Of a DNA stretch of 64,000 nt, positions 53,284 to 57,064 are shown one piece after another. Positions within the stretch are counted from its first letter, which is position 1. Each line of letters starts with the position of its first letter. The DNA is taken from contig OZ242214.1 of the NCBI GenBank assembly GCA_965206595.1, positions 2,048,001 to 2,112,000 of the forward strand, given 5' to 3'. The translations under genes and the position numbers were made by a program. This stretch comes from Candidatus Latescibacterota bacterium. GTDB lineage: Bacteria; Latescibacterota; UBA2968; UBA8231. The notes under the pieces were generated by a model. It was not told the DNA's origin. It searched no databases and saw nothing but the letters and a program-made list of their open reading frames with translations.

Positions 53284-53658
53284 ATGGCACTGACCATCAT
53301 CCGCACCGTCCGCCCCAGCCCCGAATGGCAGGATACCCTCATCCGCCTGCGCCGGGGACAGCGGATGGTGATCGACACCGAGGAGGTCTGGTCGCCGGAC
53401 ATGCGCAACCAGATCGTCTGGTGCGGGGCAGACGGGGTGTACAACCTCCCCGCGGACGAGGGGTACCTGCTGCCCGGGGCAAACGTCGGCATGCTGATCG
53501 CCCGCGTCGGCGACGGGCCGCCCTTCGCCGTCGGCAGCCGCCACGACTTCCTCTGCGACCGCGAGGGCCTGCTCCACCTGGCGATGAACGAGAACCCCGA
53601 ACACAACAACCAGGCGGGGAAACTCTCCTCCCAGATCATCCTGTTCGGGGAAGAGTGA
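53284..53658 (+). CDS. Hypothetical protein, PA-IL/LecA-like beta-sandwich
   Basis: WQDT.I.L..G, W, YLLPGANVGMLIARVG, F.VG, G.L.L.MNE..N; RBS AGGAG. Confidence 0.55.
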   Translation: MALTIIRTVRPSPEWQDTLIRLRRGQRMVIDTEEVWSPDMRNQIVWCGADGVYNLPADEGYLLPGANVGMLIARVGDGPPFAVGSRHDFLCDREGLLHLAMNENPEHNNQAGKLSSQIILFGEE

Positions 53659-54755
53659 CAGCGACCGAACTGGCAGCTGGGGTCTGGAGAGTCGACCTGG
53701 ACGGCGGCCGCCGCGTCGTCGCCAAGTGCCAGCCGTTTGCCGGCCTCACCCGGGGCCGGGCCGACGACCTGATCGCCGTCGAGCAGCGGGTTCTGACCCT
53801 GCTGAAGGAGCGGAATTGCCCGGTGCCGCAGGTCCTCGGCGCCGATCCGGACGCGGGCCTCATCTTCTTCGAGCACCTCGGGGAGGAGACCCTGGACGAT
53901 GCCTGCCGCGGCGCGGGACCCGGCCGCCTCGCGAGATTGCGGGAGCGGCTCGTCAGCGGATTCCTGCGGATAGAGCAGGCCTTCGCCGACTGCCGGCGGG
54001 AGCTGGCACCCCACATCTCCGCGGCGGCCTCCCGCGAGCGCCTCCCGGACGCTCTCACCCAGGCTCGAGACGGGGCTTGGGACGGAATGCACAGGCTCCT
54101 GCACCGGTGCGGGCAGGCCCCCGGGCCGGCTCTCGAAGATCTGCTCGTGGAGCTCTGCGAGCGGCTCGCCGGGGAGGAGCCGAGCCTCGGAAGCACCGAC
54201 TACAACGCCCGCAACGTCGTCGTCGACCGCGGCAGCGACGCGGTCGGTTTCATCGAGTTCGCCAAGATCGGCTGGGACTGGCCCGAGCGCCGGCTGGTGC
54301 AGTACGCCACCGGCCTGGGAGCGGACGCCGAAGGGGGCTTCGCCGGTCTCCTCGACCGCACCGCGGCCGGCCAGTACGCGAGCTCCGCCCCCGGAGACCG
54401 GGCCCGCAGGGGGTTCGCCCTCGACGGGCACCACCTGCTCTTCCACCTCAACGCGGCGGCCAGGCTCTGCGGCGCCCTGGATGGCCCCGGCCTGGAGCCG
54501 AACCGCACGCTCCTGGAAGTCTGGCGGCAGCCGAGGCTGCGCCTGCGCCAGCTCTGCGACGCCATCTCCTTCCCTCTCGGCGACGACTCCCTGGCCATCG
54601 GCTTCAGAAGGCAGTTCGCCCGTCTCCTGTCCCGGGAATGGACCGGACAGGATGCGGACGCCCAACGGGTCCGGGTAACCCGGAATGAAGAGGAACCAGT
54701 GAACGTACCGCCTGTTGTCACCCTCCCAACCCCTGATGCAGGAGCGCAACCATGA
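53655..54755 (+). CDS. APH/choline-kinase-like phosphotransferase
   Basis: VVAK, E..VL..L, VPQVLG, TDYNARN, IEF; GTGA overlap with upstream gene. Confidence 0.7.
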   Translation: MTATELAAGVWRVDLDGGRRVVAKCQPFAGLTRGRADDLIAVEQRVLTLLKERNCPVPQVLGADPDAGLIFFEHLGEETLDDACRGAGPGRLARLRERLVSGFLRIEQAFADCRRELAPHISAAASRERLPDALTQARDGAWDGMHRLLHRCGQAPGPALEDLLVELCERLAGEEPSLGSTDYNARNVVVDRGSDAVGFIEFAKIGWDWPERRLVQYATGLGADAEGGFAGLLDRTAAGQYASSAPGDRARRGFALDGHHLLFHLNAAARLCGALDGPGLEPNRTLLEVWRQPRLRLRQLCDAISFPLGDDSLAIGFRRQFARLLSREWTGQDADAQRVRVTRNEEEPVNVPPVVTLPTPDAGAQP

Positions 54756-55030
54756 ACGAATCCGACAACCTCGACTTCAAACCCCGGGCCCGGGGGCTCG
54801 TGATCGGCGGCCTTCCCTGGCTCGCCCGCATAGCGGACAAGGCGCGCGCCTGGCACGGCGGGCGCATCGGCGACTACGTCTTCCCGTGAGCTGCCGACCA
54901 GCGCTTTCTGGAGGAAGCGGAGCTGAAGTCGGAGGAGTTCTCGGAGATGGTGCTGGCGAGCGCCGACGACGAGGAGTTGATCGCCAGCATGAAGGAACAC
55001 CTCGGGGGGCGGACCGTTAAGGGTCCCTGA
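54752..55030 (+). CDS. DUF5069-like protein, candidate selenoprotein (TGA at codon 46)
   Basis: MNESDNLDFKPRARGLVIGGLPWLARIADKARAWHGGRIGDYVFP-U-AADQRFLEEAELKSEEFSEMVLASADDEELIASMKEHLGGRTVKGP; RBS AGGAG 7 nt before ATG. Confidence 0.75.
54894..54932 (+). promoter_or_regulatory. Putative bacterial SECIS hairpin
   Basis: ccgac/gtcgg, cag/ctg and cgctttc/ggaagcg stems; apical loop UGGA begins after a 19-nt spacer from the UGA. Confidence 0.7.
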
Positions 55031-55039
55031 CCGCCCGCC

Positions 55040-55837
55040 ATGCTCGAGGACCGGACAGCCGTCGTCACCGGGGCAGGCCAGGGGATCGGACTGGGCGTCG
55101 CCCGGGCCCTGGCCGCCCGGGGGGCGCGGGTGGTCATCGGCGAGCTGGTCCCGGAGCGCGGTGAAAAGGCCGCGGCCGGCATTATAGCGGAAGGGTACCG
55201 CGCCCGGTCGGTACCGCTCGACGTCAGCCTGCCGGAGTCCTGCTCGGCCCTGGTCGACACCGTGCTCGGGGAACACGGGCGTATCGACATCCTCGTCAAC
55301 TGCGCCGGCATCTTCACCGCCCACCGCTCGGAGGAGTTCCCCGAGGAGGACTGGCGGCGGCAGATCGACGTCCTGCTGAACGGGGTCTTCTTCACCACCC
55401 AGGAAGTGGTCCGCAAGGTCATGATTCCGCAGCAGTCCGGCAGCGTCGTCACCGTCGCCTCGATCGGCGGCATGGGCGGCTGGCCGATGCGGGCGGCCTA
55501 CAACGCCGCCAAGGCCGGGGTCATCGTGCTCAACGAGGTGCTGGCGACCGAGTGGGCCCGGCACGGCATCCGCCTCAACTGCGTCTCCCCCGGGGTCACC
55601 CGGACCGAAATGATCGAAAAGGCGATCGCCGCGGGCGCCTCTTCCATGGACCGCTACCGCAACCGCACCCCCCTCGGGCGGATCGCCGAGGTCGAGGAGA
55701 TCGCCAGCGCCGTCCTCTTCCTGGTATCGGACCGCGCCTCCTACATCACCGGGGAAAACCTGCGCGTCGACGGCGGCTGGGTCCCCTGGGGCAACCTCGA
55801 TGCCATCGGCTTTCCCGAAGATGCGGACCGTCCCTGA
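55040..55837 (+). CDS. SDR family oxidoreductase
   Basis: TGAGQGIG, NCAG, YNAAK, VDGG. Confidence 0.92.
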   Translation: MLEDRTAVVTGAGQGIGLGVARALAARGARVVIGELVPERGEKAAAGIIAEGYRARSVPLDVSLPESCSALVDTVLGEHGRIDILVNCAGIFTAHRSEEFPEEDWRRQIDVLLNGVFFTTQEVVRKVMIPQQSGSVVTVASIGGMGGWPMRAAYNAAKAGVIVLNEVLATEWARHGIRLNCVSPGVTRTEMIEKAIAAGASSMDRYRNRTPLGRIAEVEEIASAVLFLVSDRASYITGENLRVDGGWVPWGNLDAIGFPEDADRP

Positions 55838-56594
55838 GTTCGCCGGCAGGACGGTGGTCGTCACCGGCGCCGGCGGCGGGCTCGGCTCGGACATGGCACA
55901 CCGCTTCGGCGAGGCCGGGGCTTTCGTGGTGGTCGCCGACATCGACGCGGCAGCCGGCCATGCTGTCGCAGAGCAGTTGCGCGGCGACGGCATCGAGGCC
56001 GTGTACCGCCGGCTCGACGTGCGCGATCCGGGTTCGAGCGCCGGCCTCGTCGAGGACGTGGCCGGCGAGCGCGGCGGTATCGACGTCTGGGTCAACAACG
56101 CCGGAGTCGCCCACAAGGGGCCGGCCGAAACCCTGCCGCAGGAGCAGTGGCGGGAAAGCATCGACGTGATGCTCTCGGGCGCCTTCTACTGCGCCCAGGC
56201 CGCGGCCCGCCCCATGCTGGAACAGGGCCGGGGCGTGATCGTCAACGTCGCTTCCATCATCGGCTGTTTCCCGATCGAGCAGCGCGTCGCCTACGGCACC
56301 GCCAAGGCGGGACTGATCGCCCTCACCGAAGCCCTGGGGATCGAGTGGGCGGACAGGGGTGTGCGCGTCGTCGGCGTCGCCCCCGCGGTGGTGATGACGG
56401 AGATGGTCCGCAAAGGTCTGGCCGAGGGCACGGCCACGGTCGCCGCGTACGAGCGCCGCACCCCGATGCGGCGGCTCGGCACCAAACGCGAGGTCTCCGA
56501 TGCCGTCCTCTACCTCGCCAGCGACGAGGCCTCGTTCATTACCGCCGAGACCCTGAAGATAGACGGGGGCTGGGGCGCTTATTCCTTCTTCTGA
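55821..56594 (+). CDS. SDR family oxidoreductase
   Basis: TGAGGGLG, NNAG, YGTAK, IDGG. Confidence 0.9.
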   Translation: MRTVPEFAGRTVVVTGAGGGLGSDMAHRFGEAGAFVVVADIDAAAGHAVAEQLRGDGIEAVYRRLDVRDPGSSAGLVEDVAGERGGIDVWVNNAGVAHKGPAETLPQEQWRESIDVMLSGAFYCAQAAARPMLEQGRGVIVNVASIIGCFPIEQRVAYGTAKAGLIALTEALGIEWADRGVRVVGVAPAVVMTEMVRKGLAEGTATVAAYERRTPMRRLGTKREVSDAVLYLASDEASFITAETLKIDGGWGAYSFF

Positions 56595-56614
56595 CTTCTG
56601 AGAAAGGGTTCGTT

Positions 56615-57064
56615 TTGAAAGTAGCCGGAGCGGCGCACACGTCGTACACGGTTTCGGACCTGGCGCGGTCCAAGCAGTTCTACTGCGGCCTTCTCGGCTG
56701 CGAGGTCCTGTGGGAGCGGGAGATCGTCGAGACTTATTTCCGCGCCATCGTCGGTTTTCCCGATTGCGTGGTGAAGGCCGCTCAACTGCGCATTCCCGGA
56801 TCGGGCCACGTGCTCGAGCTGTTCGAATACGCGCATCCGCGCGCCGCCCCCGCGGTGCCGCCGGTCAACCGCCCTGGCAGCTCCCACATCGCCTTTCTGG
56901 TCGAAGACATCCACGCCGCTTGCGAAGAGCTCGGCGCCCGGGGGGTGGTCGTCCGCTCCGACCCGGTCGAAGTCGACTACGGAGCCAACAAGGGGGCCTG
57001 GGGGGTGTACATCGAAGACCCGGACGGCATCCCCATGGAGCTGTTCCAGCCCCCGCCCCGTTGA
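56615..57064 (+). CDS. VOC/glyoxalase family protein
   Basis: HTSYTVSDL.RS..FY, LELFEY, HIAF.V.D, DPDG.PMEL; TTG start. Confidence 0.88.
   Translation: MKVAGAAHTSYTVSDLARSKQFYCGLLGCEVLWEREIVETYFRAIVGFPDCVVKAAQLRIPGSGHVLELFEYAHPRAAPAVPPVNRPGSSHIAFLVEDIHAACEELGARGVVVRSDPVEVDYGANKGAWGVYIEDPDGIPMELFQPPPR

Follow-up and report, generated by a model that had tools for sequence, protein, structure and literature searches.

Bacterial selenoprotein genes with a selenocysteine insertion element inside the reading frame, such as fdhF and selD, carry an in-frame UGA as selenocysteine (Sec) codon, a stem-loop (SECIS) directly downstream in the coding sequence and orthologues with Cys, and SelA, SelB, SelD and tRNA-Sec are encoded in the same genome. 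A bacterial SECIS has a G in the first two positions of a loop that lies 16–37 nt from the UGA, and in the minimal element of Escherichia coli the upper stem-loop stands about 11 nt after the UGA. The latest inventory of prokaryotic selenoproteins, from 2026, lists 119 families and subfamilies in the main-text Table 1 (PMC13188914). A further described case is the MerB-like SaoL, a selenoprotein reported to be truncated in its database entries (bioRxiv 10.1101/2022.07.06.499078). DUF5069 (Pfam PF16798) has a crystal structure, that of an uncharacterised protein of Leptospirillum rubarum (PDB 3omd), and no assigned function.

We analysed a 64,000-nucleotide stretch of a Candidatus Latescibacterota genome (the window), in which positions 54752–55030 of the forward strand are very probably one 92-residue DUF5069 selenoprotein gene, with the UGA at 54887–54889 decoded as Sec. 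The gene has the in-frame UGA, the downstream stem-loop, the Cys orthologues and the encoded machinery of the fdhF and selD systems. It differs from them in its protein family and in its loop (UGGA, not GGUC), and its hairpin is conserved only as an apical stem of 6–7 bp, formed by the codons of an F-L-E-E/G block that does not vary among Sec forms. The 119 tabulated families were recognised by the same logic of a Sec/Cys pair with a SECIS and the accompanying machinery, and many of them are likewise small uncharacterised proteins; but neither the domain identifier PF16798 nor the name DUF5069 occurs in the main-text table (PMC13188914), so that the suspicion of the earlier note that the family is not among the known ones held for this table. 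Nor did either term turn up in the full texts that could be searched. We regard the selenoprotein family as real and, it appears, undescribed, so that it would extend the inventory as given in that main text. It is widespread, occurring in more than 100 related uncultured bacteria labelled Latescibacterota or Poribacteria, and has been annotated so far only as truncated fragments, or missed. In this it resembles SaoL, from which it is distinguished by a single U in place of CU, by its family and by its occurrence in Latescibacterota- and Poribacteria-labelled MAGs.

The layout of the gene proved to be as the earlier note had read it. A Shine-Dalgarno-like AGGAG (54740–54744, forward strand, read from the sequence) precedes the ATG at 54752 by 7 nt; 45 sense codons lead to the TGA at 54887–54889, and 46 more to a TGA stop at 55028–55030, 9 nt before the next ATG at 55040. 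The initial ATG overlaps the TGA stop of the upstream gene (ATGA). As had also been noticed, the open-reading-frame listing misses the gene, having at this locus only a 45-aa stub (54752..54889).

The read-through product matches PF16798 with 58.7 bits (E 8.8e-16), above the gathering cut-off of 27, over residues 11–85 and thus across the UGA, which bears out its assignment to DUF5069; the match is partial, covering profile positions 4–78 of 133 and falling short of a full domain. By its sequence the protein is a short-form DUF5069, and forms of about 90 aa are common among the database matches to the domain. A profile built from 68 orthologues matches 3omd and aligns U46 with the Cys in YNCPLD. 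The AlphaFold2 (AF2) model (pLDDT 82.1) has the same fold as 3omd (VIA-align Z 11.5, rmsd 2.4 over 88 residues; Foldseek E 7.6e-4, TM 0.70), and the two proteins share the motifs PR..., WL.R..DKARA and Y.Y.C/U..D, while the window's protein is set apart by its length of about 90 residues, its partial profile match and Sec in place of Cys. The predicted fold draws on helices from both sides of the UGA. Sec46 belongs to the motif Y-x-[YF]-P-U-x-A-D and caps the N-terminus of helix 47–55 in this fold, beside an invariant Asp49 and an invariant Arg/Lys cluster. Orthologues have 22 invariant columns, spread over residues 1–73; their alignment contains no second conserved Cys, and the protein has a single Sec and no UxxC or CxxU motif. 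Structural searches of the PDB for clues to function (Foldseek and VIA-align) returned 3omd only, the next best match having Z 3.7; the ESM Atlas, queried with a natural Cys form, returned only clusters named DUF5069, with scores below 0.9; and among the NCBIfam models 0 families, and hence no selenoprotein model, matched the read-through protein.

Orthologues are conserved on either side of the TGA. A class-wide search found a match in 126 of 132 genomes; 119 rows of this search are the short orthologue, and one TGA was flagged in 105 of these. The 70 class orthologues that were read divide, at a single gap-free column, into 56 with TGA and 14 with TGC or TGT, and the named-MAG loci, a set of 80 that overlaps these 70, have TGA in 63 and Cys in 17. 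The 80 include a Poribacteria-type clade with six Sec and two Cys forms. Distant DUF5069 domain matches (n = 170) have Cys at this column in 113 cases and Ser in 31. The UGA thus occupies the conserved Cys of the family, as the earlier note had proposed, given the Cys in 14 of 70 orthologues, in 3omd and in 113 of 170 distant domains. On a gene tree of 79 rows, five switches between Sec and Cys are needed, of which at least two are forced by starred branches. Sequence comparison therefore shows both the continuity of the gene and the alternation of UGA with Cys.

Directly downstream of the UGA, the apical hairpin of the candidate bacterial SECIS is found at 54902–54919 of the forward strand (5' arm cgctttc, 54902–54908; loop UGGA, 54909–54912; 3' arm ggaagcg, 54913–54919), lying over codons R51-F-L-E-E-A56. 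Its stem begins 12 nt, and its loop 19 nt, past the UGA; the UGGA loop after a 19-nt spacer had thus been located correctly in advance. This placement is near that in E. coli and that in this genome's own selD, where a 6-bp stem lies 11 nt downstream of the UGA; the selD loop, by contrast, is GGUC. The earlier note had described a stem of three parts. All three are recovered by the minimum free energy (MFE) fold of 54887–54946, with lower parts ccgac/gtcgg and cagc/gctg (54894–54932), but conservation is limited to the apical 6–7 bp: the lower parts are paired in 61–66% of cells with no fixed register, and the RNAalifold consensus contains the apical stem alone. Lower-stem models in two registers were tried, and both were poorly conserved.

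Every Sec form has a 6–7 bp hairpin that starts 12 nt past the UGA, and its UGGA loop shows no variation among the 62 Sec sequences. The window's own fold is not above chance (z = -0.77; 49 of 200 shuffles equal or better), and the basis for regarding the hairpin as exceeding chance is comparison between genomes rather than the sequence of the window. Pairing was assessed in 62 Sec sequences (60 distinct) at stem columns 19–25/30–36, against 500 shuffles and slid controls. Stem cells were paired in 93.8% of cases, compared with 80.7 ± 1.2% after shuffling (0/500 shuffles reaching the observed value) and 24–66% in the slid controls. Pair 20–35 occurs as GU (26), AU (19), GC (10) and UA (5), and pair 21–34 as CG (33) and GC (27). 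The covariation suggested for checking is accordingly present, though it goes back to a small number of independent events, about one for each major clade, and the two measures that count pair types were not above shuffles (185/500).

Codon choice within the hairpin is restricted in the same genes. Leu53 is CTG in 54 of 54 Sec forms, against CTG in 28 of 54 and six codons in use at the invariant control Leu24; Phe52 is TTC in 52 and TTT in 2, whereas these two codons divide 34/20 at Phe9 and 36/18 at Phe63; and Glu54 is GAG in 53 of 53. The UUCCUGGAGGAA 12-mer is retained by a single Cys form of 14, the motif being gone from the other 13, and the Cys forms of the Poribacteria-type clade likewise have no UUCCUGGAGGAA. 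This comparison of sequences shows selection at the RNA level that acts on the hairpin only in UGA-bearing genes. With its F-L-E-E block fixed in Sec forms only, the compact hairpin offers a clean natural case of a SECIS dictating protein sequence. Whole-region folding energy was also considered as a discriminator and does not separate the forms (mean MFE -17.7 kcal/mol for Sec and -19.9 kcal/mol for Cys forms), and for this reason the case for a SECIS is built on the specific conserved stem and not on stability. An Rfam scan of 54600–55150 gave no match at E ≤ 1.

The genome encodes the machinery that Sec insertion uses, which had been named in advance as a check: tRNA-Sec (71.6 bits; called SeC by ARAGORN, anticodon tca), SelA (539 bits), SelB (338 bits) and SelD (368 bits), the last with one in-frame TGA of its own, all four above curated cut-offs. 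A search for selA across the class succeeded in 125 of 132 genomes. In two genera it found no selA in any genome, and both have Cys forms; the two Sec-form genomes in which selA was not found are 81% and 80% complete. From comparison we infer Sec insertion itself: by analogy with known systems, the hairpin in the coding mRNA (54902–54908/54913–54919, UGGA) would recruit SelB with Sec-tRNA(Sec) to the ribosome, while at the terminal UGA, with no such hairpin behind it, translation would end.

Might the TGA instead be a nonsense mutation in a pseudogene, or an error of assembly or sequencing? The source genome comes, judging by its close relatives, from an uncultured organism, gene finders yield only the 45-aa stub, and many such stubs stand in databases: in public protein sets the family is represented by fragments that stop immediately ahead of the UGA, with at least 11 representative clusters ending at profile position 45. 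Yet 56 of the 70 orthologues, which come from different species, have the TGA at the identical column, as expected if relatives keep it; protein conservation goes on past it, so that the downstream half is not neutral; and the hairpin is conserved only in genes that bear it. Contigs assembled from runs of three studies, one of which may be the assembly's own source, cover the gene with 0–1 differences and none at 54887–54889, and agree on the TGA. (One sponge metatranscriptome run had only fragments 85–90% alike, in which the UGA is not spanned.) The comparative data effectively refute a pseudogene or error, to which we assign a negligible probability.

Two other accounts accept the gene and dispute the product, and we think both very improbable. 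Near-cognate decoding, or an alternative code, could place a standard residue such as Trp, Cys or Gly at the UGA, and one database protein (P0008) does have Trp at the position of Sec46, from which it follows that some pipeline used a TGA=Trp code. Against this, TGA is also an ordinary stop in this genome, ending both the adjoining kinase gene and the DUF5069 gene itself, and the code is therefore standard; moreover, the column exchanges specifically with Cys, the genome has a complete Sec system, the selected hairpin stands at SECIS distance, and it is Cys forms that occur in both genera in which no selA was found. Alternatively, in a reading compatible with Sec decoding, the UGA might be mainly a regulated stop, the 45-residue peptide being the main product and the full-length selenoprotein being made only with selenium. 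Release factor 2 and Sec insertion compete for the UGA in bacteria, and a truncated product is compatible with all of the results here; but Cys forms are full length without exception, the predicted fold uses helices of both halves, and for neither half was a start codon or a separate function seen. We therefore retain the full-length selenoprotein as the preferred reading.

An exchange of Sec and Cys is an accepted sign that a residue is reactive, and position 46 (Y-x-Y-P-C/U-x-x-D) is therefore the probable functional centre of DUF5069, which makes that centre directly testable in a family that has a structure and no assigned function. The earlier note had gone further, to a 'catalytic redox or metal-reactive' residue; such a role we can at most infer, because of the Ser found at this column in 31 of 170 distant domains. 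It is possible, and we suggest it tentatively, that Sec46 is a reactive selenol, acting as nucleophile or redox centre, and that in the window's clade it is the partner of the kinase encoded upstream or acts on the product of that kinase; the Ser residues, the lack of a second conserved Cys and the 20 of 80 related loci without the kinase count against this guess.

The kinase gene (53655–54755, forward strand; 366 aa) lies immediately upstream, with a GTG start taken from a 91%-identical database protein. Its product is a predicted kinase of the APH/choline-kinase type, on the grounds of a marginal match to PF01636 (24.0 bits, cut-off 23.2) and of an AF2 model (pLDDT 90.9) whose top Foldseek matches are small-molecule kinases (probability 1.00, E 1.2e-7 to 4e-5). 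In fold it resembles corramycin phosphotransferase (8agy), PsiK, macrolide 2'-phosphotransferases and MTR kinase; the catalytic positions have Lys, Glu, Asp and Asn without exception, and it differs from usual APH kinases in having Glu for the Asp of the DFG-like metal-binding motif (F-I-E-F). It is upstream of the DUF5069 gene in 60 of the 80 related loci, and in the window's family-level clade the two genes appear, from their arrangement, to be translationally coupled, which provides a concrete entry point for biochemistry. The searchable literature contains no kinase–selenoprotein pair of this kind, and a complex prediction for the kinase with a natural Cys-form DUF5069 as stand-in returned 'no answer' (score 0.00), which counts neither for nor against binding. 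It is conceivable, if rather doubtful, that DUF5069 comprises enzymes or redox proteins not yet recognised as such, whose active-site residue the Sec/Cys pair reveals, and that in the window's clade it acts in two steps together with an APH-type kinase dedicated to it. The kinase would first transfer phosphate to a small molecule; the selenol at the helix N-cap, next to the invariant Asp and to the Arg/Lys cluster, which could bind an anionic group, would then attack or reduce the phosphorylated product. Sec forms without the kinase have varied neighbours, among them an RsmD-like methyltransferase, UPF0182 and PheA, and a triple-DUF5069 paralogue elsewhere in this genome has an uninformative setting, adjoining genes for Fpg, a peptidase C26 and a radical SAM protein.

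The gene at 54752–55030 on the forward strand represents a genuine, unannotated selenoprotein family, very probably decoded by the known bacterial mechanism. A Shine-Dalgarno-like AGGAG (54740–54744, +) stands ahead of the start ATG at 54752; 45 sense codons then lead to an in-frame TGA at 54887–54889 (residue 46) and 46 more to the TGA stop at 55028–55030, with the next gene starting at 55040 (+). The ATG shares a 4-nt ATGA overlap with the TGA stop of the upstream ORF and, since TGA ends both the upstream gene and the DUF5069 gene, the genetic code is standard. A mechanical ORF list has the gene as a 45-aa stub only; ribosome-binding site, start, codon counts, stop and the omission from the ORF track are all as the earlier note had read them. 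Contigs from runs of three studies, one of which may be the source of the assembly, span the gene and differ from it at 0, 1 and 1 positions, never at the TGA, and so the codon at 54887, which the note had marked for checking against reads, is present in all three. High-depth contigs of other organisms in three metagenome runs matched only the 62 nt at 54863–54924 (9 differences), comprising the last part of the N-terminal half together with the UGA and hairpin; this stretch is therefore the most conserved DNA of the gene.

The gene is continuous across the UGA. Its 92-residue read-through product matches Pfam DUF5069 (PF16798) with 58.7 bits (cut-off 27) over residues 11–85, spanning the UGA, which upholds the family identity that the earlier note had proposed; because the match takes in only profile positions 4–78 of 133, the protein is a short form of DUF5069. 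An NCBIfam scan of the product returned no matching model. The orthologue profile matches one solved structure, 3omd, an uncharacterised protein of Leptospirillum rubarum, with the UGA column aligned to the Cys of its motif Y-N-C-P-L-D, and an AlphaFold2 model (pLDDT 82.1) matches 3omd alone (Foldseek E 7.6e-4; VIA-align Z 11.5, runner-up 3.7). Among 170 domain matches to distant DUF5069 proteins (150 best representatives), the six commonest states of the column are C 113, S 31, gap 14, G 4, A 2 and N 2; the column proposed as a conserved Cys is indeed Cys in most of these domains, in 3omd and in the Cys-form orthologues.

Sec and Cys form a pair at the UGA column. Of the 132 genomes in the class, 126 gave a match in a six-frame search, and the orthologue of about 90 aa occupies 119 table rows, flagged as having one TGA (105), no stop (13) or a TAA (1). 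Seventy orthologues were checked by reading (30 loci from the six-frame search and 40 fetched). Column 46 is TGA in 54 and TGC/TGT in 14 of the 68 that could be parsed; two outside the parsing pattern have TGA, preceded by Phe not Pro, giving 56/70 TGA and 14/70 Cys, so that both expected codons occur at the same column. The flagged TGA of genome G124 and TAA of G024 are terminal stops, with Cys at the column, and with both corrected the class comprises about 104 Sec and 15 Cys forms, the by-eye check having covered 57 of the 105 flagged TGAs. Among species-representative genomes, a scan turned up 266 relatives, and the best 80 were retained, a set overlapping that of the class; most carry the record title Candidatus Latescibacterota, the others Gemmatimonadetes, Poribacteria, Handelsmanbacteria, Opitutales or Planctomycetota. 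These best 80 comprise 63 TGA and 17 Cys forms, including six Poribacteria-titled Sec forms. A gene tree of 79 rows, built with the UGA column masked, needs 5 Sec/Cys switches, of which its starred branches force at least two.

Downstream of the UGA, a compact hairpin at SECIS distance (cgctttc-UGGA-ggaagcg, 54902–54919, +) shows RNA-level selection that is confined to UGA-bearing genes. The minimum free energy fold of 54887–54946 gives the three-part stem described in the earlier note, and, given the GC-rich sequence, does not exceed chance (z = -0.77; 49/200 shuffles equal or exceed it). The alignment from the UGA to +60 nt is gap-free across orthologues, and RNAalifold predicts the apical stem as the only structure; this part of the stem is conserved, but the lower stems (61–66% paired) are not. 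Every one of 62 Sec sequences (60 distinct) has the loop UGGA, and 93.8% of the cells in the 7-bp stem are paired, compared with 80.7 +/- 1.2% in column shuffles (0/500 reach the observed value) and 24–66% in slid controls. Pair 20–35 is GU 26, AU 19, GC 10 and UA 5, and pair 21–34 is CG 33 and GC 27; G-U pairs result from the window's two T-for-C changes. Three versions of the stem base follow clades: the window's family has CGC...GCG/GUG, the remaining three class families A(A/G)G...CU(N) and Poribacteria AUG...CAU/CAC. They demand that the amino acids at residues 51 and 56 change together. The covariation that the note had proposed to look for is seen in the pairing, the stem base representing few independent events; two measures that count pair types were not above shuffles (185/500).

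Codon usage within the Sec forms is a stronger test than pair covariation. In 54 Sec forms, Leu53, within the hairpin, is CTG in 54/54 versus six codons at the invariant Leu24 (CTG 28/54); Phe52, also within it, is TTC/TTT 52/2 versus 34/20 at Phe9 and 36/18 at Phe63; and Glu54 is GAG in 53/53. The same sites vary in the 14 Cys forms, in amino acids too (FLRE, FLQK and others), and the 12-mer UUCCUGGAGGAA is kept in 1/14. Sec and Cys forms cannot be told apart by total folding energy (-17.7 vs -19.9 kcal/mol, respectively).

The Sec machinery is present in the 7.05 Mb genome, which encodes all four components for which the earlier note had proposed a search: tRNA-Sec (71.6 bits; called SeC, anticodon tca, by ARAGORN), selB (338 bits), selA (539 bits) and selD (L021, G000:C1:6566458-6567381, minus strand; 368 bits, one in-frame TGA). 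This selD is itself a selenoprotein, with the motif KTCG-U-AAK and a hairpin (6-bp stem, loop GGUC) that begins 11 nt past its UGA, similar in geometry to that of the DUF5069 gene. Across the class, selA was found in 125/132 genomes; both genera in which no genome gave a selA match have Cys forms wherever the orthologue is present, and completeness is 81% and 80% for the two Sec-form genomes that lacked such a match. SelB-dependent insertion of Sec at residue 46 is very probable, in which case UGA 54887–54889 would be decoded by the SelB route.

Sec/Cys pairs as a general rule mark reactive cysteines. In the AlphaFold2 model, residue 46 closes the coil ahead of helix 47–55, an N-cap position, and Asp49, Tyr42 and an Arg/Lys cluster (R12, R14, R26, K30, R32) are invariant; together with that rule, these features point to a possible nucleophilic or redox selenol. 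A simple dithiol-type oxidoreductase is argued against by Ser in about a fifth of the distant domains and by the lack of a partner Cys. The Sec-containing DUF5069 of the earlier note is supported by the TGA/Cys pair, hairpin and machinery.

The upstream gene (53655–54755, +) encodes a predicted APH-type phosphotransferase, narrowly over the APH cut-off (24.0 bits against 23.2); its probable GTG start follows that of a database protein of 366 aa and 91% identity. Its model (pLDDT 90.9) matches small-molecule kinases, namely corramycin phosphotransferase, PsiK, ethanolamine kinase, macrolide and aminoglycoside phosphotransferases and MTR kinase. The residues at the catalytic sites of the kinase (Lys, Glu, Asp and Asn) do not vary, Glu takes the place of the usual metal-binding Asp in F-I-E-F-A-K-I-G-W-D-W, and G-C-P-V-P contains an almost invariant Cys. 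NCBI names two of its relatives 'phosphotransferase', the rest being 'hypothetical protein' or nameless. A kinase homologue lies directly upstream in 60/80 loci, usually with the 4-nt ATGA overlap, beside Sec and Cys forms alike. Because these 60 loci belong mostly to one family-level clade, they represent one conserved operon, not many independent associations. In the window's clade the putative selenol would be linked to the kinase. The kinase was not found at 20/80 loci (the other three class families, Poribacteria and a subclade within the window's own family), which have differing contexts; at one of them, L191, an alignment alone shows a divergent kinase-like ORF upstream. One Sec-form locus with no kinase upstream has a more typical APH-family gene (L123:5416-6549, 87.5 bits) about 1.1 kb downstream. 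Downstream of the DUF5069 gene, two short-chain dehydrogenase genes and a glyoxalase-family gene (55040–57064, +) are syntenic within the genus only, in two same-genus genomes.

Only 5 relatives of similar length, including 4 full-length Cys forms, came out of a word-seeded search of 5.8 billion proteins, and an exhaustive profile search yielded 661. Fragments that stop exactly at profile position 45 make up at least 11 representative clusters, and one full-length entry (P0008) has Trp at the Sec position, so that some pipeline has read the TGA as Trp. Public protein sets thus contain the family in three wrong forms (P0008, P0024, P0027, P0018, P0034): stubs that stop right before the UGA, C-terminal pieces and this one Trp-bearing full-length entry. 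The DUF5069 selenoprotein family is apparently undescribed, a point that the note had marked for checking. The searched full texts mention neither DUF5069 / PF16798 nor selenocysteine together with Latescibacterota; judged by title or opening of the abstract, none of the papers found that mention selenoproteins with Latescibacteria or Poribacteria concerns the family. The family is absent from the 119 families or subfamilies in Table 1 of a 2026 review (PMC13188914) and from the nine new families listed in passages of the deep-Sep paper (PMC12013277). The review credits a Cell Reports 2026 groundwater-MAG study with 'potentially novel candidates'.

Other DUF5069 genes occur in the class. The window's own genome has three tandem DUF5069 domains in one open frame (L193:5765-7477; G000:C1:4728764-4730476), an arrangement kept across the class, with uninformative neighbours (Fpg, peptidase C26 and a radical SAM/SPASM gene); in a relative's triple gene, the motif has Ser, as G-x-x-S-G-x-D. 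The triple gene of genome G010 (L195, G010:C1:2154925-2156775, minus) has an in-frame TGA (EFL-U-IDVD) at a column that is Gly or Glu in its other repeats; the TGA probably reflects a nonsense mutation or an error of assembly and not Sec. A full-length, 135-aa DUF5069 gene of a different subfamily (L194:286-693, G018:C322) has TGA at the same column as the short form (L194:412-414, DYVYN-U-SLD), for which either a second Sec form or a point mutation could account; its five class orthologues have TGT/TGC there, and the TGA version occurs in one species only, in a genome without the short form.
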